Source: Naegleria gruberi
Lineage: Eukaryota
Length of the DNA stretch: 64,000 nucleotides
Reading direction: 5' to 3' (one strand)
Assembly (NCBI GenBank): GCA_000004985.1
Contig: GG738886.1
Positions 44,202-62,089 of this stretch are shown in pieces; position 1 is the first letter of the stretch, and each line of letters starts with the position of its first letter. Under the pieces are notes generated by a model. The model saw only the letters and a list, made by a program, of their open reading frames with translations. It was not told where the DNA came from and did not search any database. A program made the translations under genes and the position numbers.

Positions 44202-46709
44202 ATGATTCAAGAGCACTTAAACGGCGACTCCACCTCTGTGGAAAGAACCGTTTTCCAACAAGATTCCTCACCCATCCGTCTTCGTTCATTAAAACCAAGT
44301 CACCAACTTTCTCCTTCGTATAAATCACCAAAATCACAAACACCTTCAAAAACTAAACTTTCACAATCTCCTCCACCTTCATCGAACAGTAAGAGAATGA
44401 TGAGAGCAAATCATGCTCGCTGTCAAGCTTTTGAAAAATCTCCAGATTTGCGAATGCAAAAAGTTTCACATGATAAGGAAAATCAAGAAATGGACATTAG
44501 TCCACATAATAACGAAACTATTCTTTCACCACCCAAGTTGGTGTTGAGTAAATCGAATTCTGGATTGAGAAAGCCACTGAGTCCAATTTCTCCTCAAATG
44601 ATGGAAGATTCTCCATTGGAAAATATTAAACGAAAGACACCTAATCGTTATTCACCTTATTTATTGAAATCTGTATTGAAGAATGCAAATTCACCACGAA
44701 ATGTTTCACCACTCGTTCGTAACAGTGCTACCTTTAAGAGAAAATCACCACACAATCGATCTACTCCAAATAATTATTCGAAACATTCGAATGATCCTAA
44801 TAGAATGAGTGAATCACCAGATGCAGACTGTATCCAATTAGAAACTCCACCTCACATCCTCCAACAAGAAGACAATAAGAAATTCATTGGTGAACAAAGT
44901 ACCATCCGTGTGAAACCAATCCAATTCCAAGCTCCAACCTCAAGTGCCAACGAACCATTCTCACCAATTGCCCAAACTAATCACATTCCACAACAAGCAA
45001 CATCTTCCACATTCAGATCACCATTCAAAACTCCAAGTTACATTAAAAAGAGACAAGCTCTTGCTGAGGATTTGGGAATGGCCTTTGAGGATAGTTATTC
45101 CAGATCTGCAAAGAAGAATGCTACCACTCAAAATCCACTTAAAAATCCATTCACACCAAATAGTTTTAAACAAATTAAGGTAATTCCTGATAAGGCATTT
45201 AGAATGATGGTTGGAAATACAGCTCAACAACAAGTGGTTGAAGAACCTAAAAAGAAGAAATCAATCATTCGTTCAATGAGAGATTATAGAAAGAATAAGA
45301 AGGAATCACTGAAAAGTAAATTGAGAGGTGATAGTCCACCTAAGGATTATTCCTCATCTACTGATTCATTAAAGAAGAGTAGATCTCCTGCCAGAAAGAG
45401 AAAGTTTGATGAAACTGAAGAAGAAATTCAAGGAGGTGCCACAGTTTTAAGTAATTTGGGTGTTCTCATTGATCAGTCAACTGTAACCAGTTCAGCACCA
45501 GTAGCCAACACTAACCAAAATGATTTCATGATTGCAGCAGATATCGAAATTGAAAGTGATGGAGAAGATGTTGTCATTGAAGAATTGGAACATGCAGCAT
45601 GTGAATCACCAACTAAGAAAATCAAATCAGAACAAGGTAGACCACTTTGGAGTAGATTAAAGAAGGCTCTCACAAAGAAGAAATCAAATCCAGAAGAAGA
45701 CGATGAAGAATCCAAACAACCAAAGAATACACTCAGAAGAAAGCTCTCTAAAAAGGGTCTTCAAGCATTCAGATCTAATCAAGTTCAACAAGTGCAAAAT
45801 AACTTGTCAAATCCTAATTTACTATCAACTCAAGATTTCAATAATGAAGGTCCACTGAGAAAACAAAGAAGTTTTGGAGAAAATTATTTTTCCTCAATGG
45901 TTCATGGAAGAAAGCAACAACAACAACAAATGGAAGAACAATCAGCTGATTTACACAATATTTCATTTGACGAAACTGATTTAAACAAACACAAGAATCG
46001 TCAATTCCAACTTCAAGATGATTTACAAGAACAATTTTTGAATAATATGAAAATGGTCAAACATACTGATTCTAATTTAAAGTCCTCATTCACTAACAAT
46101 ACAACCATTGCTGCCACTACTAACGAATGTGTGAAAAATTTCAAAATTCCATCACTCAATTTGAAGAATGTACCAACTTTACAATTAGCTCCAAAAGAAG
46201 AAAAGCCAACTTTCACATATTCTTTCGTTGAGATTATTAACACTCCACATCATAGAGAATACTTTACAAAACATTGTATTAATGAGTACAATTCAGAAAA
46301 TATTGAATTTTGGTGTGCTGTCAGATTAGAATATTCCTATTTAAGAGATAGATCACAAAGATATCAAATGGCTATCAAACTTCTCAATGAATACGTTGAT
46401 TTATCAAGTGATAAGGCATTAAACATTGATAAGAAATCCATTCTTCAAGTCAAGACAAGAATCAATGACGAAACTGATGACCTCTCTGATTTATTCGATT
46501 CCATTACTAACCATGTAGAAACTGTAATGATGGACTCTTTCAAGAGATTCCAACTCCTTCCAATCTACCAGGAAATGATTGCTCACCACAAAACCATCAT
46601 CTCTGAGAATAACAAGACAGATTTGGATACTCCTAGAGGAACCAACTTTAAGAATAAGATGTTTAGTTTCCTTTCTCCAAAAGGTCTCATCAAACAACAA
46701 CATGATTAA
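44202..46709 (+). CDS. RGS (regulator of G-protein signalling) domain protein of 835 aa with a long Ser/Pro/Lys-rich N-terminus.
   Basis: C-terminal RGS box FSFVEIINTPHHREYFTKHCINEYNSENIEFWCAVRLEYS...LLNEYVDLSSDKALNID...MMDSFKRFQ, matching the SEENLEFW consensus. Confidence 0.7.
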   Translation: MIQEHLNGDSTSVERTVFQQDSSPIRLRSLKPSHQLSPSYKSPKSQTPSKTKLSQSPPPSSNSKRMMRANHARCQAFEKSPDLRMQKVSHDKENQEMDISPHNNETILSPPKLVLSKSNSGLRKPLSPISPQMMEDSPLENIKRKTPNRYSPYLLKSVLKNANSPRNVSPLVRNSATFKRKSPHNRSTPNNYSKHSNDPNRMSESPDADCIQLETPPHILQQEDNKKFIGEQSTIRVKPIQFQAPTSSANEPFSPIAQTNHIPQQATSSTFRSPFKTPSYIKKRQALAEDLGMAFEDSYSRSAKKNATTQNPLKNPFTPNSFKQIKVIPDKAFRMMVGNTAQQQVVEEPKKKKSIIRSMRDYRKNKKESLKSKLRGDSPPKDYSSSTDSLKKSRSPARKRKFDETEEEIQGGATVLSNLGVLIDQSTVTSSAPVANTNQNDFMIAADIEIESDGEDVVIEELEHAACESPTKKIKSEQGRPLWSRLKKALTKKKSNPEEDDEESKQPKNTLRRKLSKKGLQAFRSNQVQQVQNNLSNPNLLSTQDFNNEGPLRKQRSFGENYFSSMVHGRKQQQQQMEEQSADLHNISFDETDLNKHKNRQFQLQDDLQEQFLNNMKMVKHTDSNLKSSFTNNTTIAATTNECVKNFKIPSLNLKNVPTLQLAPKEEKPTFTYSFVEIINTPHHREYFTKHCINEYNSENIEFWCAVRLEYSYLRDRSQRYQMAIKLLNEYVDLSSDKALNIDKKSILQVKTRINDETDDLSDLFDSITNHVETVMMDSFKRFQLLPIYQEMIAHHKTIISENNKTDLDTPRGTNFKNKMFSFLSPKGLIKQQHD

Positions 46710-48748: not shown

Positions 48749-50770
48749 TTATTTGATAATCTTTTCAGCAGCTTCCTTAATCTTACCCAAACGGCTTTGA
48801 ATATAAGCCATTCTGAGAGTCTTATCTCTAGCTAAGAAAGGTCTAGCACTGACAGCAAATTGGAAACGAGGATTAAGTTGTCTAGCAATACCTTCGACAA
48901 CGACAGTACTGATGACAAGTGTAGAGAAAGTAGATTCAATAGGAACACGATATTGTCTACCAAGAGTCAACACAGTTTCCATAACCTTACCAACTTGAAT
49001 TTCTTCAATTGGCTTATCCAAAACGAATGTAATAAGTTCAGCCATTTCCTTCTTGAATTTTTCAGCATTTTCTGGTGTCAAAGAATAACCAGTATTTTCA
49101 CGAAGCTTTCTAGAACGTTCAATCATCAATTGAGCAGCATAATAACCTTCACCTCTGATAATAGCAGAGAAGAGATCAATAAAGTTTTGACGATCTTCTG
49201 ATGACAATTGAGTAACCATACCAGCATCCAAAACAACCAACATTGGCTCATTGGTTTCCTTGTTAATTCTAACCATCAAATTACCAGGGTGCAAATCAGC
49301 ATGGAGCAAGTTGTCATGCAACATCATCTTTAAGAAAAGGTCGGTACCAAGTTCGGCAACACGATGTCTTTGGTTGGTTTGTTGAAGTCTTTGTTGTTCC
49401 TTTTCATCAATTTCTCCTTCAACTTCTCTACTAACAGGTTTGTTGCCCTTTTCATGAACAAGTTCATCTAAAATTTGTTCTGGTTTTGGAACAGGATTTG
49501 GGATTGAAATTTCACGATCAATACGAGCTTGATCCAAATAATGTTGAATAGAAATACCAGGTTCAAAACTTTCAATAAGAATGCTTGGAGTATAGAAATA
49601 TGGAGTTGGGAAAATGATAGTAGACTTAAAGTCTTGGAAGTTCTTTTGGAAGGCCTTAAGATTTTCACCTTCAAATCGGAAGTTGGTTTGAAGTTTCATA
49701 CACTTTGTAAATTCTTTAACATTTTCTTGAAGTTGCAACCAACCCAATGATGGAAGGAATCTACTAGTCAAAACACAGAACAATTCCAAAATCTTTAAAT
49801 CTTGAAGAATTTGTGTTTCAACATAAGGATGTCTAACCTTGATGGCAACATCCTTGATTTCTTCCTTCTTTGTGTGATCATTAAATCTCTTCATTTTGCC
49901 TCTGTAAACTTGACCAATAGCACCACTTGCCAAAGGATGGTTACTATCAATCCAAGTAATGATATCTTCATCTTTTCCTTCTCTCTTACGATATTGATCA
50001 TTAACAAGTTGTTTAACGTTTTTAACATGATGTTTTGGAGCATTAGAGTGGAGAGCAGCAAAGTGTTTACAAATGTGAGGATCGAGTAAATCAGCTCTTG
50101 TTGAAAGCCATTGTGAGAATTTGATGAAACAAGTACCTCCGTCCTTCAAACTTTGAACAACACGCATAAAGAATGCTTCATCAAGATCCTTTTCAGCCTT
50201 GTCCAACATTTCTGCTCCATTTTCAAATTTAATCCTAGTGTATAAAAATCTATAGAAAGGCTTTAGGATGAGATAATGCCACATTGAATAGAAAACGAGT
50301 GGTGAAAAGATGGTAATAATTTCATTCAAACGTTGTCCAATATGAATTAAATAGTAAATACGATGGAAAAGAGAGTGAGTAAATCTATCATATAATAATT
50401 GACCATATTTGTCGCTGTTGATGAGTGTTGGTGTATCAAAGGCATGTTCAGGAACTGCAGGAGGTTGTGCTTCTTCTGATTTTGGTCCAAATAACAAATT
50501 CAACCATCTACTCTTTCTACGGATGACTCCAAGTTCTTCTTCGGTTTCCTTTTCGTAAGCCTTAGCAACAGCTCCAACTGTAAGAGCTGAACCAACTACC
50601 ACTGAACCAATTAGAAATTTTCTACCATATCCACTACTTTTGGCAGCTTCAGCAGTTGTCTTTAATGGTTGTTGCACACCACGACGAAGGAGGTGCTTCC
50701 ACATTTTTTTTATCGGCTTTTTTGTTTGCACATTTGCGTTGAAGAGATTCAAAAGCCCTGTTTCACTCAA
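48749..50770 (-). CDS. ABC1/ADCK (UbiB-family) atypical kinase of 673 aa, likely mitochondrial.
   Basis: ASGAIGQVYRGK...VAIKVRHP at the lysine site, and HADLHPGNLMV as the catalytic loop typical of ABC1. Single ORF. Confidence 0.75.
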   Translation of the reverse strand: MSETGLLNLFNANVQTKKPIKKMWKHLLRRGVQQPLKTTAEAAKSSGYGRKFLIGSVVVGSALTVGAVAKAYEKETEEELGVIRRKSRWLNLLFGPKSEEAQPPAVPEHAFDTPTLINSDKYGQLLYDRFTHSLFHRIYYLIHIGQRLNEIITIFSPLVFYSMWHYLILKPFYRFLYTRIKFENGAEMLDKAEKDLDEAFFMRVVQSLKDGGTCFIKFSQWLSTRADLLDPHICKHFAALHSNAPKHHVKNVKQLVNDQYRKREGKDEDIITWIDSNHPLASGAIGQVYRGKMKRFNDHTKKEEIKDVAIKVRHPYVETQILQDLKILELFCVLTSRFLPSLGWLQLQENVKEFTKCMKLQTNFRFEGENLKAFQKNFQDFKSTIIFPTPYFYTPSILIESFEPGISIQHYLDQARIDREISIPNPVPKPEQILDELVHEKGNKPVSREVEGEIDEKEQQRLQQTNQRHRVAELGTDLFLKMMLHDNLLHADLHPGNLMVRINKETNEPMLVVLDAGMVTQLSSEDRQNFIDLFSAIIRGEGYYAAQLMIERSRKLRENTGYSLTPENAEKFKKEMAELITFVLDKPIEEIQVGKVMETVLTLGRQYRVPIESTFSTLVISTVVVEGIARQLNPRFQFAVSARPFLARDKTLRMAYIQSRLGKIKEAAEKIIK

Positions 50771-51613: not shown

Positions 51614-54600
51614 ATGTCAATCAGACAAAAACTCTTCCCTCAGCGAAAGCGAATGTCTGGTATTTTTGAATCAGAGCACTCGCCAACTGACGTGGACAGC
51701 CTAAAGAAAAATAGACGAGTTTCGAACGCTTCAGATATGATGTTGAGTCATCCTCCAATCGATCAGCACACCTCCAACCTTCTCAACACTAGTCTCTGTA
51801 ATAATCCCTCCATGTCAGAAGATTCACTCTCTCGAAAAGTTACCATTGGATCATCGACTTGTATTGATAGTAGTACTGGTAGCAGCGAGGTTGATTCATC
51901 ACCAAATAATAATGGTAATACACTCGATATCAAGAGCAGTAGAGGGAAACAAGAGCAATCATCCACAGTGATGATCGCTACTGCTCCTCCTGCTGGTTCT
52001 GATGCGGTAAATGATGATGTTGCTTCTTCTGGCTCATCCAAAAACAGCCTAAAAAACGAAGAGAAAAATGCTTCATTGTTGCCACAACAAGACTCATCAT
52101 CAACAAGTATAAAATCGGACTCATCTTCTCTCAATAACAACAACAATAATAATAATATTAGCAATAATAGTTCAGTATCATCATCATCATCCGCCTCAGT
52201 AGTAGATAATATTGAAGACGATATGACAAAAAACAGATCACTCACATATGCTGTTGGTGATTCCAAATTTAAGGGAATTGGCCCTAATGATGTTAAATCA
52301 CCACAATCACAGAATGCTACTACAGTTTCAACCTTTCTTACCGATGAACAACCATCTACTATTTCTCCAACAACTGCTATGAATAATAGATTCCAAGGAA
52401 TCAGTTCAAAAGACGCCAAACCTACAACCACAACAAGTACTACATCCCAACCAAAGCATGCTAATCCTCCACCAATACAAACAACATCATCCGTATCAAA
52501 TAATGGTAAATCATCAACTCCTACAAATAACAAGCCAGCATCATCAAAACCAGTAGAAAAACCAAGAGTTTCTCAAGACCTTTCAAGAGAAGCAGCTTTA
52601 AAGAAGAAAGCAACAGGAAAAAGCTTAACAATGCCATCTTCATCACAAAACAAAATTGTAGTGATTGGTTGTAGAGGTATTGGTAAATCCGAAATGGTGT
52701 ACAAGTTTTTACACAATGAAATTCGTTTTTATCATCAATTAAAGAAAGATAAGGCTCATCTACTTGAAGAACTTAAAGGTACTTTGGCTTCCGAACAAAA
52801 GACTATTAACGAGAAAAAAACACAATCAGCGTCCAACCAACAGAATGCTACTACCACACCAACAAATAATTTACCATCATCATCGACATCATGCACAATA
52901 ACACCTAAAACTGAACCTTCTCCAACAAAAGTTCAAGACAATTTACCAATAGATCCAGGTGCAATAGTGGAAAATGAAATTGAGTGTGCTCTCAAACCAT
53001 CAGACTCTTTAGAAGTTAGAAAACTGAAATTACTTTTAATGAAGAAAGACCAAGAAATTAAAAAACAAAAAGAAGAAATGGAAAATACCATTCAAGAACT
53101 TTCAAGTATGTGGAAAAAGGAGAGAACAGAAAAGGTCGAACTTGAAGAAGAGTATGTCGAAAAGGAAAATGAGTTGAATCATTATATTTCAGTTGTTGAA
53201 CAGATTCATCACTTGATTAATTTGGATCCAAAGTCAGATGAAATTCCAGAAGCAATTTCTTTCAAACTTCCTGAAAATCCTAATAATGGAATTTTGAGTC
53301 CAAACAGAAAGAGAAAGACCAGTGCCCATGCTGGAGTTATTGCTGCAACACCAAAACAAAATTTATCAACACTTCCACCATCTACTCCAAATGTTGTAAC
53401 ACCAATGAATAATAGAAATAGTCACAATAATAACCACAACGACGACTTCTTTGATCTCCAAAACTTCAACCCTAAAGACCCTGTACCAGTAACACCAATG
53501 TCTTCCCAAAGAAAGGCAAGACATGTCAGAACGGAAAGTACTTTCCAAAAGCTAAGAACAAACCAATATCAAGTTGTTGCTCAAGATTTAAGAAAATCAA
53601 TTGAAGAAGATATTGACGCAGATGTTTCTGATCCAGAAACAAACAGCATTGCTTTAGCTGCAAACGAAACTGATGAGACCACGGACGAAATTAACATGTT
53701 CTTGGCAGATTTTAATAGAACCGAGGAATCCAATTTTGTATTGACAAACAATCCATCCATGAATAGAATTCAAGCTCCACAAGTGAAGAATTCCCTTTCC
53801 AATTCGGAAGATAGTGCTGGAGATGAAGATACCGAGAATGATTATTCAGAAAGTAGTGATATTACTTCTGTTTCATCAACTGCTAGTTCTAACCATTCCC
53901 TTGTTAAAGCTCAATCAACAATGGATGTAAGAGGTGATAGAGGACAACCAGTAGTAGCTAACAGTTTAATTTTACCAAATGTTGGAAAGTCAAAATCTCC
54001 AACAATTGTACAATCTACAGATTACAAGTATGACGAGAACTTGTTTGTAAAATTATTAACCCCAAGTTTCCACCTTACTGAGGGTTTGAGAAAGTTTAAT
54101 ACCGGTAAACCAAAAGATGCTCTCAAGTATCTGATAGAAAATGCAATTTTGCCTGATCCAGAAGCTGGGTTAACTGAAACTAAGGAAAAACCAGAGGCAG
54201 TAATTTCTAGATTTATGGCCATTGCTGATTCTTTGAATAAGGAAAAACTCGGAGAATTTTTGGGAGATGAAAGGAATAATGTCTATCTGGAAGAATTTGT
54301 CAGATTCCATGTTCAAGAGCTGTACAATGAAGAAAAGAAACAAGGTGATGACACTTATTTGAGCAAGTTTGATCGTGCTCTTCGTTCATTTTTCATTCAA
54401 TTCAAATTACCAAAAGAAGGACAACAAGTTACCAGAATTGCAGAGGTCTTTGCCAATGTGTATAGTGAAAATAACAAGAATGATGGAGAACTCAATGGTA
54501 ATGGTGATGCTTGCTATTTACTTGTATGTTCAATGCTCATGGTGAATACACAATTACACAATCCAATTGCGAATATCAAGTTATCGAGAGAGCAATTTGT

Positions 54601-55588
54601 AGAATTATTCTCACAATTCAAAGATATTAACATGAACTTTATTGGATCATGTTACGATACCATCGCAAGAAATGCTATGGTTCTCTATGATGAAGAAGTT
54701 GATTCTGAGGATAGAACAAATTTCGAGTCAGACGATCAGATCGATTTATTCTTCAAATGCTACAAACCAAGAGCAGCATTGCCAGCTTCAGCTAGTGATT
54801 CTCAAATAACAGTTCACAGAGCTATCAAATCTCTGAGTTTGGATGGAGACAAAGTTAAGGAATTGATGGAAAGTGCTATTACATTCTTCTTCAAAGCCAA
54901 AGTTATACATGATGGAGTCATTAATAGAATTCAAATCAAGGACTCTGATCCAAATCTCGAGTTAACAACCACAGAAACTATTACTGAGTCTGGTTTGACA
55001 ATAACAAAAGTCAAGCTCAGGGATCCAACAGAAATTAATAATGAGGCAAAGACTGGTAATTACTTTATCTGTGCTTATAGTGTTGCTGATCGCACAAGCT
55101 TTTTGATTGTTGAGCATATCATCAAAGCAATTAGAAAGGCCAAGAGAAGAGAAAGAAAGGCAGAAAAGAAGAAGAATAAGTCTTCCAAGACAAAGCCTCA
55201 ATATAGCACCTTAACTGGTTCAGTTACCGAGGAATTACTACAAATGCTCAATGGAGATGATAGTGACTACAATAATGACAAGTTTATGGTTCTTGTGGGC
55301 TGTAAAGCTGATGTTCCAGATGACCAAAGACAAGTTTCAAAGAAAGAAGGTGGTGAACTAGCTCTCAAGTACAGTATTCCATTCTTTGAAGTTTCTAATG
55401 GAGATATGTTTGGAATACGGAAAGTTTTCTTGAATGCTATCGATTCCATCAAGAGACAAAATGCTTCATACGTGGATGCAGTCAAACAAATGAATGACTT
55501 CCACAAGAGAATGAATATTGCAAAGCAAAACAAGAAAGGCCAAATAGATGTTAACTCTCTTGCTATACTGCCAAAGTGTTACATTTAA
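51614..55588 (+). CDS. Protein of 1324 aa. It has a Ser/Asn-rich N-terminus, a Ras-like G1 P-loop segment, a coiled coil, a Sec7 (ArfGEF) domain and a C-terminal Ras-like G-domain remainder.
   Basis: G1 KIVVIGCRGIGKSEMVYKF. Sec7 core FKLPKEGQQVTRIAEVFANVY and YLLVCSMLMVNTQLHNP. The C-terminus YFICAYSVADRTSFLIVEHIIKAIRKAK...KFMVLVGCKADVPDD...LALKYSIPFFEVSNGDMFGIRKVFLNAIDSIKRQ is colinear with Ras beta4 through alpha5, that is G4 NKxD and G5 ETSAK. Confidence 0.7.
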   Translation: MSIRQKLFPQRKRMSGIFESEHSPTDVDSLKKNRRVSNASDMMLSHPPIDQHTSNLLNTSLCNNPSMSEDSLSRKVTIGSSTCIDSSTGSSEVDSSPNNNGNTLDIKSSRGKQEQSSTVMIATAPPAGSDAVNDDVASSGSSKNSLKNEEKNASLLPQQDSSSTSIKSDSSSLNNNNNNNNISNNSSVSSSSSASVVDNIEDDMTKNRSLTYAVGDSKFKGIGPNDVKSPQSQNATTVSTFLTDEQPSTISPTTAMNNRFQGISSKDAKPTTTTSTTSQPKHANPPPIQTTSSVSNNGKSSTPTNNKPASSKPVEKPRVSQDLSREAALKKKATGKSLTMPSSSQNKIVVIGCRGIGKSEMVYKFLHNEIRFYHQLKKDKAHLLEELKGTLASEQKTINEKKTQSASNQQNATTTPTNNLPSSSTSCTITPKTEPSPTKVQDNLPIDPGAIVENEIECALKPSDSLEVRKLKLLLMKKDQEIKKQKEEMENTIQELSSMWKKERTEKVELEEEYVEKENELNHYISVVEQIHHLINLDPKSDEIPEAISFKLPENPNNGILSPNRKRKTSAHAGVIAATPKQNLSTLPPSTPNVVTPMNNRNSHNNNHNDDFFDLQNFNPKDPVPVTPMSSQRKARHVRTESTFQKLRTNQYQVVAQDLRKSIEEDIDADVSDPETNSIALAANETDETTDEINMFLADFNRTEESNFVLTNNPSMNRIQAPQVKNSLSNSEDSAGDEDTENDYSESSDITSVSSTASSNHSLVKAQSTMDVRGDRGQPVVANSLILPNVGKSKSPTIVQSTDYKYDENLFVKLLTPSFHLTEGLRKFNTGKPKDALKYLIENAILPDPEAGLTETKEKPEAVISRFMAIADSLNKEKLGEFLGDERNNVYLEEFVRFHVQELYNEEKKQGDDTYLSKFDRALRSFFIQFKLPKEGQQVTRIAEVFANVYSENNKNDGELNGNGDACYLLVCSMLMVNTQLHNPIANIKLSREQFVELFSQFKDINMNFIGSCYDTIARNAMVLYDEEVDSEDRTNFESDDQIDLFFKCYKPRAALPASASDSQITVHRAIKSLSLDGDKVKELMESAITFFFKAKVIHDGVINRIQIKDSDPNLELTTTETITESGLTITKVKLRDPTEINNEAKTGNYFICAYSVADRTSFLIVEHIIKAIRKAKRRERKAEKKKNKSSKTKPQYSTLTGSVTEELLQMLNGDDSDYNNDKFMVLVGCKADVPDDQRQVSKKEGGELALKYSIPFFEVSNGDMFGIRKVFLNAIDSIKRQNASYVDAVKQMNDFHKRMNIAKQNKKGQIDVNSLAILPKCYI

Positions 55589-55797: not shown

Positions 55798-56994
55798 ATG
55801 AATAATCCGGATATTATTCATCAAGTATTAAACTTTTTAAACGATGGTTCCGAGGAGATGATCAAAGATTACATGTTGGTTTCTTCCGAGTGGATGAAGG
55901 CTGTTCGTAATTTAGATTTATTTATTGCAGTTTATCGGAAGAATATAAAGAAGGAACAAGTAGAATTAATGATGAAAAGTACTTGTTTGAAGAATTTGAC
56001 CAAGTTGACTATTAAATTTACTGATTTGGATGGGGTAAAGGCATTTTGTGATAATTTTGCCTTCGATAGATTGACTAGCTTGGCTGTGAACGATAGTAAA
56101 CTTGGAGTTGAAGGCGCCAAGTTGATTGCACAATGTCAAAAATTGAGTAATTTGAAAGAGTTGAATGTTAGTGTGTGTGATTTGCATTGTGAAGGTGCTC
56201 AAGTGATTGTTTCAAGTCCAGTGTTTAGCAAATTGACTAGTTTGGATCTGGGTTGGAATCAGATTAAAGATGAAGGCATAAAATCATTGGCAATGAGTGA
56301 ACACATGTCTAACTTGACTCAATTAGACCTCTATCTCAATCTATTTGGAGGAGATGGCTTATCAGCAATGGCTACTAGTCCATACCTGACTAATCTTACG
56401 GATCTGAAAATGGCAGAGCTATTTCTTGGTGAAGGAATTGATTCAATTTGTGATGGTAAATCCCTTTCTAATCTAACGAGATTGGATTTGACAGAAAATG
56501 ATTTATATGAAGGTGCCATTACTGCTTTGAATAAGAGCTTGACAAAGATTACTGATCTCAATTTAACTAAGAATAATATTGGAGATGAGGGAATTGAAAT
56601 ATTGGCCAACAGCAAGTTTGCATCCACTTTGAAAGTGCTCAATATTACTGACAATGTCCTCAACCCAGCATCTTTTAAAGCAATTTCAAATTCTCAATTC
56701 CTTTCCAATTTGGAAGTATTGAATGCCTCCTCGAATTTCAGAGTAAAGGATGAAGGAGCCAAACTCATTGCCAACAGTCCAACACTTTCAAATTTGACTG
56801 AACTCATTTTGGAGGATGACAGTATTGGAACTGAGGGAGCTTGCGCAATTGCCAATAGTCAGTATTTGACTAAACTGAAGAAATTGAATCTTTCATTTAA
56901 TAAGATTGATGAGGAAGGTGTGAAGGCAATTCAAAACATGAATATCCAAGCCAAAGTCGGTAACGACAAAGCTAAGGGTTGTCCACAGCAATAA
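55798..56994 (+). CDS. F-box-like protein with RNI-type leucine-rich repeats, 398 aa.
   Basis: N-terminus IIHQVLNFLNDGSEEMIKDYMLVSSEWMKAV. About 12 repeats of the form LxxLxLxxNxIGDEGxxxLAxS, as in ribonuclease-inhibitor-type LRRs. Confidence 0.6.
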   Translation: MNNPDIIHQVLNFLNDGSEEMIKDYMLVSSEWMKAVRNLDLFIAVYRKNIKKEQVELMMKSTCLKNLTKLTIKFTDLDGVKAFCDNFAFDRLTSLAVNDSKLGVEGAKLIAQCQKLSNLKELNVSVCDLHCEGAQVIVSSPVFSKLTSLDLGWNQIKDEGIKSLAMSEHMSNLTQLDLYLNLFGGDGLSAMATSPYLTNLTDLKMAELFLGEGIDSICDGKSLSNLTRLDLTENDLYEGAITALNKSLTKITDLNLTKNNIGDEGIEILANSKFASTLKVLNITDNVLNPASFKAISNSQFLSNLEVLNASSNFRVKDEGAKLIANSPTLSNLTELILEDDSIGTEGACAIANSQYLTKLKKLNLSFNKIDEEGVKAIQNMNIQAKVGNDKAKGCPQQ

Positions 56995-57390: not shown

Positions 57391-59844
57391 ATGCACAAAC
57401 AGATATCTTTATTCTTGTTAGTTTTATTCTTGCTGGTTTCTTCAGCATCATTCAAACATACCCATTTCACAAAGGACATGATTGACTCTCTCAATCAAGA
57501 TCCATCTGTCAAATGGGAAGCTGCAAATTATGACCAATTTGCAGGTAAATCATTTGCTGAATTGAGAAAATTATTAGGTGGTAAGAGAGGTGAAGAAAGC
57601 TCGAGTGAAGAAGCAAGATATAATACCAGAGATGTTAAATCGACTGTTGCCATTCCTGATACTTTTGATTCTAGAACTAAATGGCCACAATGTATTCATG
57701 GTATTAGAAATCAAGGTGTAAGTAATATTCATCCATAGCATGTTGTTTAATATTGTAAAAAAAGCAATGTGGATCATGCTGGGCTTTCGCAAGTAAGTAT
57801 TAAGTTTTCCTCTGTTGTTGCTCATCTTTGACAACAATTATTACAACAAAATATGATGTGAATATTGACATGAATAACATGAAAATAATAGCTACTGGTG
57901 TTTTCTCTGATCGTTTGTGTATTACTACTAACAACGTTTCAAATGTTGTTATCAGTCCTGAAGTAAGTTAATGTAAGCTAACAATAACATAACATTCGTC
58001 CAGTTTCTTATTGAATGCGACAAGACCAGTTTTGCATGTCAAGGCGGTTATGGTTATTATTCATGGAAATTCTTCATGAATACTGGTATCCCATTAGAAT
58101 CCTGTGTTCCATACACTAAAGATTCCCTTGTTTATGGTAACACCACCAACGCTCAATGTAGATCAACTTGTACTGATGGTAGTCCACTTAAATTATACAA
58201 GGCTGCTAGTGCTTATTATATTTACTCTCCAATTACCAATTATCAAACTGAAATTATGACTAATGGACCAGTTGAAGCTGATTTTGATGTGTAAGTTTTC
58301 TAATTTTAGTAATGTGAAATTTTAATTTTTTTTAGATATTCTGATTTTTATTCATATAAATCTGGTATTTATCAAAAGACAGCAGGAAGTACCTATGTTG
58401 GTGGACATGCTGTTAAGGTTCTTGGATGGGCTTCTGATTCTAATGGAACTCCTTATTGGATTGCTCAAAATCAGGTAAGTTTCGAATAGAAATTAACAAT
58501 TAATAGAAATAATTTAAAACACAATAATAGTGGGGAACATCATGGGGTATGGGAGGCTATGTATGTTTTTAATTTGATTTGAAAAATTAATTAACTTTTT
58601 CTAGTTGTAAGTAATTTGTAATTTACTTTTTTGTAAATTTATTATCAACCTTAACAGTTATATTTATAGAGGAAATTCTACTTTGAATTGTAAATTTGAT
58701 AATTACATGATTGCTGGAACTGTCTCACCACCAACATGTTATGGTAAAGCTCAAAGTGATTCTTCAGTTTGTAATGGACATGGTCAATGTGTTGGACCAG
58801 ATACTTGTTCATGCTCAAGTGGATGGGGTGGCACTTATTGTAATATTACCAGTTGTAATGGAATTGTTTTGACTGATTCATCAGTTTGTAGTGGTCATGG
58901 CCAATGTGTTTCTGCTGAAAATTGTGTTTGTAATAGGTAGGTTTTTTCACTTGTTGTGTGATTTTTTTAACACAATTGGTTGAAGTGGTTGGAGTGGAAC
59001 TTATTGTGCTGAAACTACCTGTAATGGTATTTCATCTGCCAATTCATCTGTCTGTAGTGGACATGGTACATGTACTACCAAGGATACTTGTACATGTAAG
59101 ACTGGTTATGGAGATCAATATTGTCAATCATTCATTTGTTATGGATTGACTGGTTCCAATGCTGCCGTTTGTTCTGGACATGGTACATGTTCTGCTTATA
59201 ATACTTGTAAATGTAATACTGGATACTCTGGTTCTCAATGTCAAAACTATACCTGTAATGCCATTGCCCAAAATAATGCCAATGTCTGTTCAGGACATGG
59301 TTCTTGTGTTGATTACAATACTTGTAAATGTTCAGGTGGATACACAGGTACTTATTGCTCACAAGTTGCTTGTAATGGAATTCTTCCAACAGATTCATCT
59401 GTTTGTAGTGGCCGTGGTAAATGTGTTGGTCCAAACAATTGCACATGTACCAACTCAACTCAGTATGGAGGTGAATTCTGTCAAGTTCCAAAATGTGGTG
59501 GAATTTTGGCAACAGATTCTTCAGTTTGTGGTGGAAAGACCAATTATGTTTGCTCTGGTGTAAATACTTGTACATGTAAGACTGGATATACTGGAGCTAA
59601 TTGTAACTCATTCTCATGTTTTGGAATTGATTCCAACTCAACAAGTGTCTGTGCAGGAAGCGGAAAGTGTGTTGCATTGGATACTTGTCAATGCACTGAT
59701 GGAACTTCAGGCAATTGTACTTCCTCAACTAGTACAGATTCCAGCACAAGACAATCACATGCCTCTAATCAATATGGCCAAACCATGTGGATCCAAATTG
59801 TATTGTGTACTGTCTTGTTATGGATTGGAGCTATTGTTTTTTAA
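57391..59844 (+). CDS. Cathepsin-B-like papain-family (C1) cysteine protease. It has a signal peptide, at least six short exons for the protease, about eight tenascin-type EGF-like Cys repeats, a Ser/Thr stalk and a C-terminal hydrophobic GPI-signal/TM tail. One junction, 58561..58657, is unresolved.
   Basis: Signal MHKQISLFLLVLFLLVSSASF. Protease exons: 57391..57717; 57765..57792 encoding QCGSCWAFA; 57892..57962; 58004..58290 encoding GGYGYYSWKFF; 58336..58474 encoding GGHAVKVLGW...YWIAQNQ; 58531..58560 encoding WGTSWGMGGY. Then YIYRGNSTLNCKFDNYMIAG from 58658 onward, repeats of CxGHGxC(x5)CxCxxGYxGxxC, an intron at 58939..58988, and an end at MWIQIVLCTVLLWIGAIVF*. Confidence 0.55.
58690..59720 (+). 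repeat. Coding tandem array of about eight copies of a unit of roughly 96 bp (about 32 aa) of EGF-like modules.
   Basis: Recurrent module T-C-N-G-I-x-x-T-D-S-S-V-C-S-G-H-G-x-C-V-x(5)-C-x-C-x-x-G-[YW]-x-G-x-x-C. Nucleotide-level periodicity is visible, for example repeated gtttgtagtggncatggtnaatgtgtt. Confidence 0.6.
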
Positions 59845-60211: not shown

Positions 60212-62089
60212 TTAAAAATCATTACACAATTTCAATATTTCCTTATCATTTCTCAAATCAATGGATGCATATTTCAGTGCACTCTTATTTTGTTTGACTG
60301 CAAATGAAACTATTCCTCTATCACTTCTGAGTTTTAAACACATTTCACGTAACAGATTGCCATCTCTTTTCACAACTCGAATCACAAATACTCTATCTGA
60401 GACCTTTAATTTACCAGCACTGTAGAATGCATTAATAGCATCAGTTTTTAACGCTTCCATCAAAATCTCTCTATCTATTTGATGTTTTCTTGGAAAATTT
60501 GGCAAATAATTCCCAGATTGTTTGACTAGTTTCTGAAAGCAAAATAGTCTGTCATTAATCAATCTTTTAGATATCTGACTAAAATTCAACATGACGTTTC
60601 AGCAGCTTTGAGAACAATTTGTTCATCATCCCAAAACTCTGCTGTGCAAGAATTGATTGCATCTCCATCTTGTGTGACTGCAGCCAAAACTATTTCTCTA
60701 TCTGTTTGAAATTGTTCACCAACATAATACAATATCTCACCACATCTTGTTACAGCTTGTAATACAAATTCTCTGTCTTGTTTAAATTCATTTGGGATTG
60801 CATTCATTGCTTCGTACAGATTAAAACATCCTGAGGATATTTTAATTGATTCCAATAATACCTCTCTGTCGTGTGTGAATTGATCTGGAATATTCTCCAA
60901 AGCAAAACCAGTCTTTGCAAATGATTGGATGAATTCAATGTCATTTCTCAATCTATCAGAAATATATGTAATGGCCAAACCAGAAGATTTGAGTGCCAAC
61001 TCAGCAATTTCCTTGTCATCTCTCAATTCAGTTGATGCAAATTGGAAACAGGACCAATTTTTCATAACAAGCATTTTCACAAATTCCTTATCATTTTTCA
61101 ATTCATCAGATGCGTGTTGAAAAGCTTGTGGATTTTGTTGAATAGCTTCCATAACAATCTCTCTATCATTTCTCAATTCCTTACACGCATATTCTAGTGC
61201 TTTCACACCGTCCAAATTTGATATTGTGAGCAGAAACTCTCTATCATTCGTAAATGCCCTACTTGCACTGTTAATTCTGGCAAGAGATTTTGAAAATGCT
61301 TTAAAAATCACATCTCTATCATTTCTCAATAATTGGGATGATTGAAAATATGCATTTGGCTTTGATTCTAGAGCTAGTAAGACAATTTCCTTATTATTTT
61401 GCAATTCTTTGGACGCAAACTCTAGGGCATCACCATTTTCTTGTACAGCAGTTCTAACTATTTCAATATCATTTCTAAATGTTTCAGATACAAATTTAAG
61501 AATTGGTCCCCAAGTACTAACAGCTGTCATTACAATTTCCCTGTTTCTTTTCAATTCTTCAGATGCGTACGAAAGAAAATGACCCTTATGTTGCACAGAA
61601 GTTTTTACAATTTCAAAATCATTTCTCAATTCTTCTGAGGCACATCTGATGCTTCCATTTTCCTTGACAGCTGCCATGACAATTTCTCTATCATTTCTGA
61701 AAACATCATCCACATAATTGAGTGTCTCAAGACCACTATACTCTGTTGTAGTCAAAACAAACGATCTATCCTTCCACAATCCAAATTTTCTAGCCAAAAT
61801 ATCAAATTTATCACAAGGCAAATCGAATATTTTGTCATGAATAAAAGTTCGATCTCTAATCAATCAATATTGGAAAATTAATTGGTTGATTTTCATTGTT
61901 AAATTCTTCTCCATGATCAAAAAACTCCCAAACAGAATCATCACTTCTCCCGAAACAATATTCAAGTATTGGTTTTAAAATGGTGTCGTGTTTGTCATTG
62001 GGTGGAATGTCTGCAATTTTTGTGGAGAGTAATTGGGAAGAGAGGGACAAATCTAAAAAACACTGATGGTTATTCTTCATCATTGGCAT
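60212..62089 (-). CDS. DUF4116-like repeat protein with an N-terminal F-box-like exon. Exon 1 is about 62089..61930, followed by an intron of about 69 nt, then exon 2 from about 61859 down to 60586. A further frame break at 60586..60592 continues into a 126-aa repeat-containing ORF.
   Basis: About nine repeats of [FL]xNDxEIVxxAVxxNGxALxYAS. The proposed intron GTTTTTTGATC...GATTGATTAG joins ...SDDSVWE to DRTFIHDKIF in frame. The ORF at 60212..60592 carries the same repeat but sits in a different frame, overlapping by 7 nt. Confidence 0.45.

Follow-up and report, generated by a model that had tools for sequence, protein, structure and literature searches.

A Sec7-domain ArfGEF of Naegleria gruberi whose Ras-like G domain is probably split between two distant segments of the chain

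Small GTPase domains are compact, contiguous modules, and the gene at positions 51614..55588 (+) of a 64,000-nt stretch of Naegleria gruberi DNA (contig GG738886.1, assembly GCA_000004985.1; here called the window, G+C ∼33%) raises the question of whether two Ras-like pieces, lying far apart on either side of a Sec7 domain, belong to one such module. The gene is one unbroken open reading frame (ORF) of 3975 nt (1324 codons plus stop, single exon), as had been claimed in the original prediction, which was made from the DNA letters and placed a Sec7 Arf guanine nucleotide exchange factor (ArfGEF) domain between the halves of a Ras-like G domain; every peptide that it quoted was found at its claimed position in the translated ORF. 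The product is N. gruberi NAEGRDRAFT_80719 (1324 aa; 100% identity across 100% of the length), which is annotated in the database as ‘SEC7 domain-containing protein’, with nothing further. When the 1324-aa protein was scanned with Pfam, Sec7 and Ras (the latter in three stretches) were found, and otherwise nothing notable. The central features are the following.

52649..52741 (+), aa 346-376: Ras-type beta1 / P-loop / alpha1 island NKIVVIGCRGIGKSEMVYKFLHNEIRFYHQL (Pfam, hhalign, conservation)
52667..52690 (+), aa 352-359: G1 / Walker A, GCRGIGKS, the sole Walker A of the protein
54071..54676 (+), aa 820-1021: Sec7 (ArfGEF catalytic) domain (Pfam PF01369)
54416..54418 (+): codon of Glu935, the equivalent of the catalytic Glu finger (alignment with ARNO E156)
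54878..55462 (+), aa ∼1089-1283: C-terminal part of a Ras-like G domain, beta2 to alpha5 (Pfam, hhalign, family alignment)

No contiguous G domain of ∼165 aa was found; ∼710 aa part the island (aa 346-376) from the C-terminal piece (aa 1089-1283). We consider it likely that the protein is a lineage-specific multidomain ArfGEF with a Ras-like G domain built from two distant segments of one chain, which probably binds nucleotide and is hydrolysis-impaired. In such a domain the ∼710 residues would be topologically inserted in the alpha1-beta2 (switch I) loop of the Ras-like fold, besides an extended helix, a coiled coil and disordered linkers the insert would contain the catalytically equipped Sec7 domain, and assembly of the G domain would close the loop around the coiled coil and Sec7.

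The Sec7 domain was matched by Pfam over aa 820-1021 (E = 9.4e-36, 123.6 bits against a cutoff of 22, profile positions 4-182 of 183), and the closest solved structure by sequence was that of cytohesin-2/ARNO (E = 7e-16). The peptides FKLPKEGQQVTRIAEVFANVY and YLLVCSMLMVNTQLHNP were located at aa 930-950 and aa 968-984. FKLPKE935GQ was aligned with FRLPGE156AQ of ARNO, and the Glu was invariant in all family sequences covering the motif; motif 2, LMVNTQLHNP, was aligned with IMLNTDLHNP of ARNO. The Sec7 ArfGEF domain of the original prediction is borne out by the Pfam score, the ARNO match and the Glu finger, and with the Glu finger and motif 2 kept it appears to be catalytically equipped. No PH domain was matched by Pfam anywhere in the protein, even at E up to 10, and a cytohesin-type PH directly after Sec7 was not found.

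The island, within which KIVVIGCRGIGKSEMVYKF lies at aa 347-365, was itself matched by Pfam Ras at profile positions 1-24 (E = 0.004). In the hhalign comparisons, ortholog alignments were set against a small, hand-entered Ras-family profile; here the island alone reached 96.5% probability and covered Ras 1-32. At this composition a Walker A motif is expected by chance 0.027 times per protein, and one with a hydrophobic strand directly before it only ∼2e-4 times, so a chance origin of the island is unlikely. When four heterolobosean orthologs were aligned, 77% of the island was invariant, as compared with 8% of the preceding 50 aa and 13% of the following 84 aa; in the same alignment the Sec7 domain was 69% and beta5-alpha5 79% invariant. 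Judged from this alignment, the pattern is what a selected structural element embedded in disordered sequence looks like.

When Pfam Ras (PF00071) was run on the whole protein, its three stretches together gave E = 4.4e-13 and 49.6 bits (cutoff 21.6), and the C-terminal piece alone gave E = 2.8e-11. A spliced query, an artificial join of the island and the C-terminal piece with the insert removed, reached E = 1.1e-17 and 64.6 bits, and was colinear from beta1 to alpha5 with Rit1 (E = 4.4e-15) and K-Ras. With hhalign, the C-terminal region alone scored 99 locally and 88 globally, the global score being the lower because the region's own upstream segment (SLSLDG..., SLSLDGDKVKELMESAITFFF) was forced onto beta1/alpha1. 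Splicing the island to the C-terminal region raised the score to ∼136 (E ∼1e-21 to 1e-24), with Ras 1-166 covered. Since the splice raises the score and the region's own upstream segment does not, the island supplies exactly what the C-terminal part lacks; no P-loop was found in the C-terminal half of any family sequence examined.

These scores bear on a different reading, which we judge distinctly unlikely, namely that the island is unrelated to the C-terminal domain, being left over from a separate G domain that has decayed, or serving on its own as a nucleotide-binding, phosphate-binding or interaction motif, and that the C-terminal region is an incomplete pseudo-GTPase folding alone or using SLSLDGDKVKELMESAITFFF. 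Such a reading gains from aa 1072-1098, which are well conserved in the Naegleria clade and have a beta-loop-alpha-beta look, and this weighs against a G domain shared with the island. However, forcing SLSLDGDKVKELMESAITFFF into place costs score where the island adds it, and the segment is conserved only in the Naegleria/env155 clade and not family-wide, whereas the island is present in every sequence covering the N-terminal region. SLSLDGDKVKELMESAITFFF was rejected as beta1/alpha1 on these grounds.

Orthologs were found in Naegleria lovaniensis, Willaertia magna, an ENA assembly (colinear) and Naegleria fowleri. Word-indexed homolog searches yielded close orthologs only, or were dominated by vertebrate PSD1 proteins; it took an exhaustive phmmer search, over 1.84 billion representative proteins, to find the divergent members. 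The proteins so recovered were 22-34% identical and had their parts in the same order. The divergent members are listed below; P0009, P0010, P0056 and P0086 derive from Logan and JGI metagenome contigs.

P0009, 885 aa, environmental assembly: same order of parts
P0010, 1100 aa, environmental assembly: same order of parts, without the motif W-x-x-ER-x-EK
P0086, 691 aa, environmental assembly: same order of parts, without W-x-x-ER-x-EK, yet with long helices predicted there
P0011/P0156, 1145 aa, complete ORF of a transcript from Percolomonas cosmopolitus (MMETSP): island and coiled coil as well as Sec7 and C-terminal half
P0155/P0007 and P0056, fragments: Sec7 and C-terminal half
P0136, fragment: island and coiled coil

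Pairwise comparisons with the window protein were colinear from the island through the coiled coil and Sec7 to the C-terminal half. The N-terminal region is covered by nine sequences; each of them contained exactly one GxxxxGK[S/T] with a hydrophobic strand before it, and this motif sat 230-620 residues upstream of the Sec7 Glu motif. In the C-terminal halves the Pfam Ras matches started at profile positions 59-103, none earlier. By its sequence, the window protein appears to belong to a split-G ArfGEF family that is recognized by an island, a helical region, a Sec7 domain with LPxEGQQV and a P-loop-less half with a beta3 ending in [K/R]-D, all of which it carries. The search for the same architecture among orthologs thus found the split layout to be shared by Naegleria, Willaertia, Percolomonas and environmental relatives. 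P0007 (270 aa), which matches the C-terminal half only, from its own residue 47 on, was considered as an unsplit relative; this was rejected because P0007 proved to be part of P0155, in which Sec7 lies upstream.

The same sequences bear on whether the architecture is an artefact, either a fusion made by assembly or gene model or an in-frame intron that was retained. The database model of N. fowleri, at only 609 aa, would suit such an explanation. Against it stand the unbroken ORFs of N. gruberi (3975 nt) and Willaertia magna, whose ortholog is likewise a single uninterrupted ORF (4284 nt), the colinear orthologs in N. lovaniensis and the ENA assembly, and the same order of parts in independent environmental contigs. 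The complete Percolomonas transcript ORF carries all four parts and, having both halves, provides mRNA-level evidence for one protein in a distant heterolobosean. An artefact is therefore very improbable, and close to refuted. The N. fowleri protein (P0005, FDP41_003600) begins just before Sec7, without the island and coiled coil of the other orthologs; the gene model is probably truncated, so that the annotation of this pathogen would conceal a split G domain.

Structure prediction was performed with AlphaFold2. For aa 340-1324 of the window protein, with a five-sequence alignment, the mean predicted local distance difference test score (pLDDT) was 43, the G region remained below 50 and the island was unfolded; this model is uninformative, and was used neither for nor against co-folding. 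P0086, the most compact member, was modeled with 12 family sequences aligned and no canonical Ras included. Its Sec7 domain and C-terminal half had a pLDDT of 74-89, and the island, at a pLDDT of 62-72, was folded into a strand (9-14) and a helix (20-38). The only other strands called by DSSP were 520-523, 530-535, 552-558, 613-619 and 641-646; a DSSP strand call requires a hydrogen-bonded partner. The order of elements, beta1-alpha1-[insert]-beta2-beta3-alpha2-beta4-alpha3-(extra helix)-beta5-alpha4-beta6-alpha5, is that of the Ras topology. The structural comparisons of the P0086 model were as follows (score; deviation; residues aligned / total).

Di-Ras1: 17.2; 2.4 A; 159 / 173
RASL12: 16.8; 2.1 A; 150 / 164
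Rab28: 16.4; 3.0 A; 161 / 177
M-Ras: 16.0; 2.7 A; 155 / 167

The structured C-terminal half of P0086 has 147 residues, 28 of which are an insert without Ras counterpart. The aligned lengths exceed what this half can hold, and therefore the island must fill the place of beta1, P-loop and alpha1 in the P0086 model. The model thus supports the view that the island of P0086 joins the C-terminal sheet and completes the Ras fold, with the limits that this relative is only ∼25% identical to the window protein, that confidence in the island is moderate, and that the predicted template modeling score is 0.35 with a Sec7-G interface that is not confident.

The original prediction had left it to profile and structure comparison whether the two segments assemble into one G domain. 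The hidden Markov model and hhalign comparisons joined the pieces and the model of the P0086 relative co-folds them, whereas the model of the window protein itself was too poor to use. The claim of a Sec7 domain between the halves of one Ras-like G domain is supported by the gain on splicing, the conserved split layout and the P0086 model. For an island unrelated to the C-terminal domain, and so against its joining that domain, speaks the poor window-protein model, which leaves the island unfolded, with alpha1 running on as a long free helix. In contrast, the P0086 model makes the island part of the sheet. The Ras sheet has beta1 at its center, so a C-terminal half without this strand should not fold alone.

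A further question is whether a G domain assembled from the two segments would form within one chain. It might instead form in trans, in a coiled-coil dimer where each C-terminal half is completed by the island of its partner chain, and would then be a dimerization lock and not an intramolecular clasp; we regard this as unlikely. Several points count in its favor: a long helix / coiled-coil region is conserved between the island and Sec7, the long disordered linkers make cis and trans both sterically possible, and all of the complementation evidence fits either arrangement equally well. On the other side, the P0086 monomer model assembled the domain in cis, although cis and trans are not separated by the present evidence, and P0010 and P0086 are without the W-x-x-ER-x-EK coiled-coil motif, although long helices are still predicted in P0086. 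Assembly in cis from two segments of one chain is the arrangement that we prefer.

The nucleotide-binding and catalytic motifs of the C-terminal half were located as follows.

54929..54943 (+), aa 1106-1110: end of beta3, IQIKD (family alignment, P0086 model)
55016..55033 (+), aa 1135-1140: LRDPTE, in the expanded beta3-beta4 region of the Naegleria clade
55301..55312 (+), aa 1230-1233: G4, CKAD in place of NKxD (Lys and Asp kept, Asn replaced by Cys)
55394..55402 (+), aa 1261-1263: G5, SNG in place of SAK (Ser kept; SNH in orthologs)

At G3, D1110 corresponds to Ras D57 (Walker B) and does not vary across the family, and SDPN replaces TAGQ (IQIKD-SDPN, aa 1106-1114). Gly60 is thereby replaced by Pro and Gln61 by Asn; both are lost family-wide, and no DxxGQ is present. 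All family members share the beta3 motif hydrophobic-x-[I/F]-[K/R]-D, which reads IQIKD in N. gruberi, VQIKD in Willaertia, FIIKD in env155, FQIRD in Percolomonas and env009, LHFRD in env010, INIRD in env056 and VVIKD in P0086, in whose model it sits at the end of beta3. The original prediction had read LRDPTE as switch II, which is probably wrong: IQIKD-SDPN aligns there in the family and in the P0086 model, whereas LRDPTE lies in a ∼20-residue beta3-beta4 expansion that only the Naegleria clade has; the sequence is not conserved, env155 reading LQLEAN. LELTTTE, the switch II suggested by the HMMER alignment, was dropped on the same grounds of family conservation and beta3 position. The claim that the catalytic Gln is missing thus stands as to the loss, which extends to Gly60; its position had been misplaced, and the Walker-B Asp D1110 is kept.

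The quoted VLVGCKADV and EVSNGD lie at aa 1226-1234 and aa 1259-1264, respectively. Across the family, G4 is a canonical NKTD in P0086 and TKGD in P0056, and is degenerate in the Percolomonas clade and P0010. As to G2, no Thr is conserved before beta2 across the family, and the insert occupies the switch I loop. The assembled G domain probably binds Mg-guanine nucleotide, because G1 is intact and the P-loop Lys/Ser, the Walker-B Asp, the G4 Lys and Asp and the G5 Ser are kept. Because Gly60 and Gln61 are absent and no switch I Thr is recognizable, the domain is probably impaired in hydrolysis and would have no canonical switch, lacking the switch II spring; in this it would resemble nucleotide-bound pseudo-GTPases.

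By analogy, the most likely role of the assembled G domain would be that of a nucleotide-stabilized clasp or docking module, which would tie both ends of the protein together and control the localization or autoinhibition of Sec7, itself an activator of Arf-family GTPases. In its logic this role would be analogous to those of the cytohesin PH domain and the AGAP GTPase-like domain. The self-regulated GEF suggested by the original prediction is likewise a hypothesis. A GTP-dependent fragment complementation, with the P-loop on the N-terminal fragment and G4/G5 on the C-terminal one, might also operate in cis or in trans, such that opening and closing of the ∼710-residue loop gates Sec7; we hold this to be improbable. 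Sec7 acting on its own G domain was considered too. Sec7 domains act on Arf-family proteins, and such self-activation is unlikely because the G domain is Ras/Rit/Di-Ras-like and not Arf-like.

Among known systems, the cytohesin / ARNO ArfGEFs come nearest in the Sec7 domain, with the Glu finger and motif 2, and likewise have a coiled coil before Sec7 and a regulatory domain after it. In contrast to them, the Naegleria protein has no PH; a Ras-like part stands in its place, and the rest of the Ras-like domain lies upstream of the coiled coil. Its Sec7 domain is also divergent (LPKEGQQV as against LPGEAQKI in cytohesins). Cytohesin-derived ArfGEFs have been described as evolutionarily plastic, with accessory domains gained and lost (Pipaliya et al. 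2019, PMC6727740). The AGAP / centaurin-gamma ArfGAPs (GTPase-like domain - PH - ArfGAP - ANK) differ in being GTPase-activating proteins and not exchange factors, and in having a contiguous, N-terminal G domain; membership of that group is not claimed here. In heterotrimeric G-protein alpha subunits, a helical domain is inserted between alpha1 and beta2 of the Ras-like domain, the same site, leading to switch I, that is interrupted here.

Pseudo-GTPases and atypical GTPases (Rnd, RhoH, the p190RhoGAP pG domains, CENP-M) have likewise lost the catalytic Gln and the DxxG Gly and retained the fold; unlike these, the present family has kept its P-loop and Walker-B Asp under strict conservation, suggesting that nucleotide binding is retained. 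To our knowledge, none of these examples has a split G domain. In p190RhoGAP such a G domain is embedded in a larger regulatory protein (PMC5593906), as is the case here. The circularly permuted GTPases resemble the present protein in that their G motifs are not in canonical contiguous order, but theirs are permuted within a compact domain, whereas here the canonical order is kept with a very large interruption. In these natural G domains, of the YjeQ/RsgA and YlqF type, the order is G4-G5-G1-G2-G3.

Ras-family and Sec7 domains in one chain were also found in the amoebozoans Filamoeba sp. ATCC 50430 (P0017/P0157) and Soliformovum irregulare (P0115). There, unlike in the Naegleria protein, an intact Ras domain in one piece (Pfam profile positions 2-161) precedes a canonical cytohesin-like Sec7-PH. 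The layouts are DEP-Ras-PH-Sec7-PH and PH-Ras-PH-Sec7-PH, and the Sec7 domains score 220-236 bits with the motif PGEAQKI. By sequence these look like an independent combination in a different family; no published description of the Filamoeba/Soliformovum architecture was found.

The remaining features of the window protein are listed below.

51614..52648 (+), aa 1-345: N-terminal low-complexity region (7% invariant in orthologs)
52994..53233 (+), aa 461-540: conserved long helix / coiled-coil region, motif W-x-x-ER-x-EK (ortholog and family alignments)
55148..55279 (+), aa 1179-1222: insertion of ∼44 aa between alpha3 and beta5, without Ras counterpart
55463..55585 (+), aa 1284-1324: conserved C-terminal tail ending LPKCYI (orthologs)

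No domain was detected by Pfam in aa 1-345. An antisense ORF of 256 aa (51763-52533, -) lies wholly inside this low-complexity coding part and is most likely a by-product of biased composition, not a gene. Within the coiled-coil region, the window-protein model had a helix at aa 466-535 with a pLDDT of up to about 80. The otherwise divergent linker before Sec7 contains two conserved motifs, the basic QRKARHVRTESTFQKLRTNQYQVVAQDLRKSI (53504-53599, aa 631-662) and the acidic, Ser-rich EDTENDYSESSDITSVSSTASS (53825-53890, aa 738-759), which could be phosphorylation or autoinhibitory elements; a comparable acidic Ser-rich stretch stands directly before Sec7 in Percolomonas and P0009. The alpha3-beta5 insert is conserved, with a basic stretch followed by YSTLTGSVTEELLQMLNGDDSDYNNDK; at this site the P0086 model has a helix (596-610), and P0010 has a very long low-complexity insert. 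The Cys of LPKCYI is third from the end, and neither CaaX nor CC/CxC prenylation signals are present. Naegleria and Willaertia share this ending, env155 has LPICYID instead, and other family members have hydrophobic ends (FYVQ, FYVK, RFLF, NILI).

The gene is surrounded in the window by the following ORFs.

44202-46709 (+): RGS-domain protein, 835 aa
47385-48554 (+): PIH1-domain protein
48749-50770 (-): ABC1 atypical kinase
55798-56994 (+): LRR_6 leucine-rich-repeat protein
59146-59844 (+): EGF-repeat protein
60586-61863 (-): protein with ten DUF4116 repeats

No functional tie to the Sec7 gene was evident for any of these six ORFs between 44202 and 61863.

In a literature search, no publication was found on NAEGRDRAFT_80719 or on a G domain split by Sec7, and the pan-eukaryotic ArfGEF survey (PMC6727740) makes no mention of Naegleria or of a Ras domain in its main text. 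The components and the principle are already known, namely multidomain ArfGEFs, G domains housed in larger regulators and G folds that carry an inserted domain. Control of ArfGEFs normally comes from separate GTPases that act upstream, on accessory domains, such as Arf6 and Arl4 on the cytohesin PH. In the present protein the accessory domain appears to be Ras-like itself and to carry the whole catalytic GEF module within its switch I loop. Should the predicted fold form, it would be an extreme natural domain insertion into a G domain, at the site used by G-alpha, and a candidate for built-in coupling of Ras-like nucleotide state to Arf activation; were nucleotide-dependent complementation to be true, this coupling would be achieved in a new way. 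The architecture is striking, conserved across Heterolobosea and experimentally tractable, and it defines a lineage-specific ArfGEF family in this group, which contains the pathogen Naegleria fowleri.

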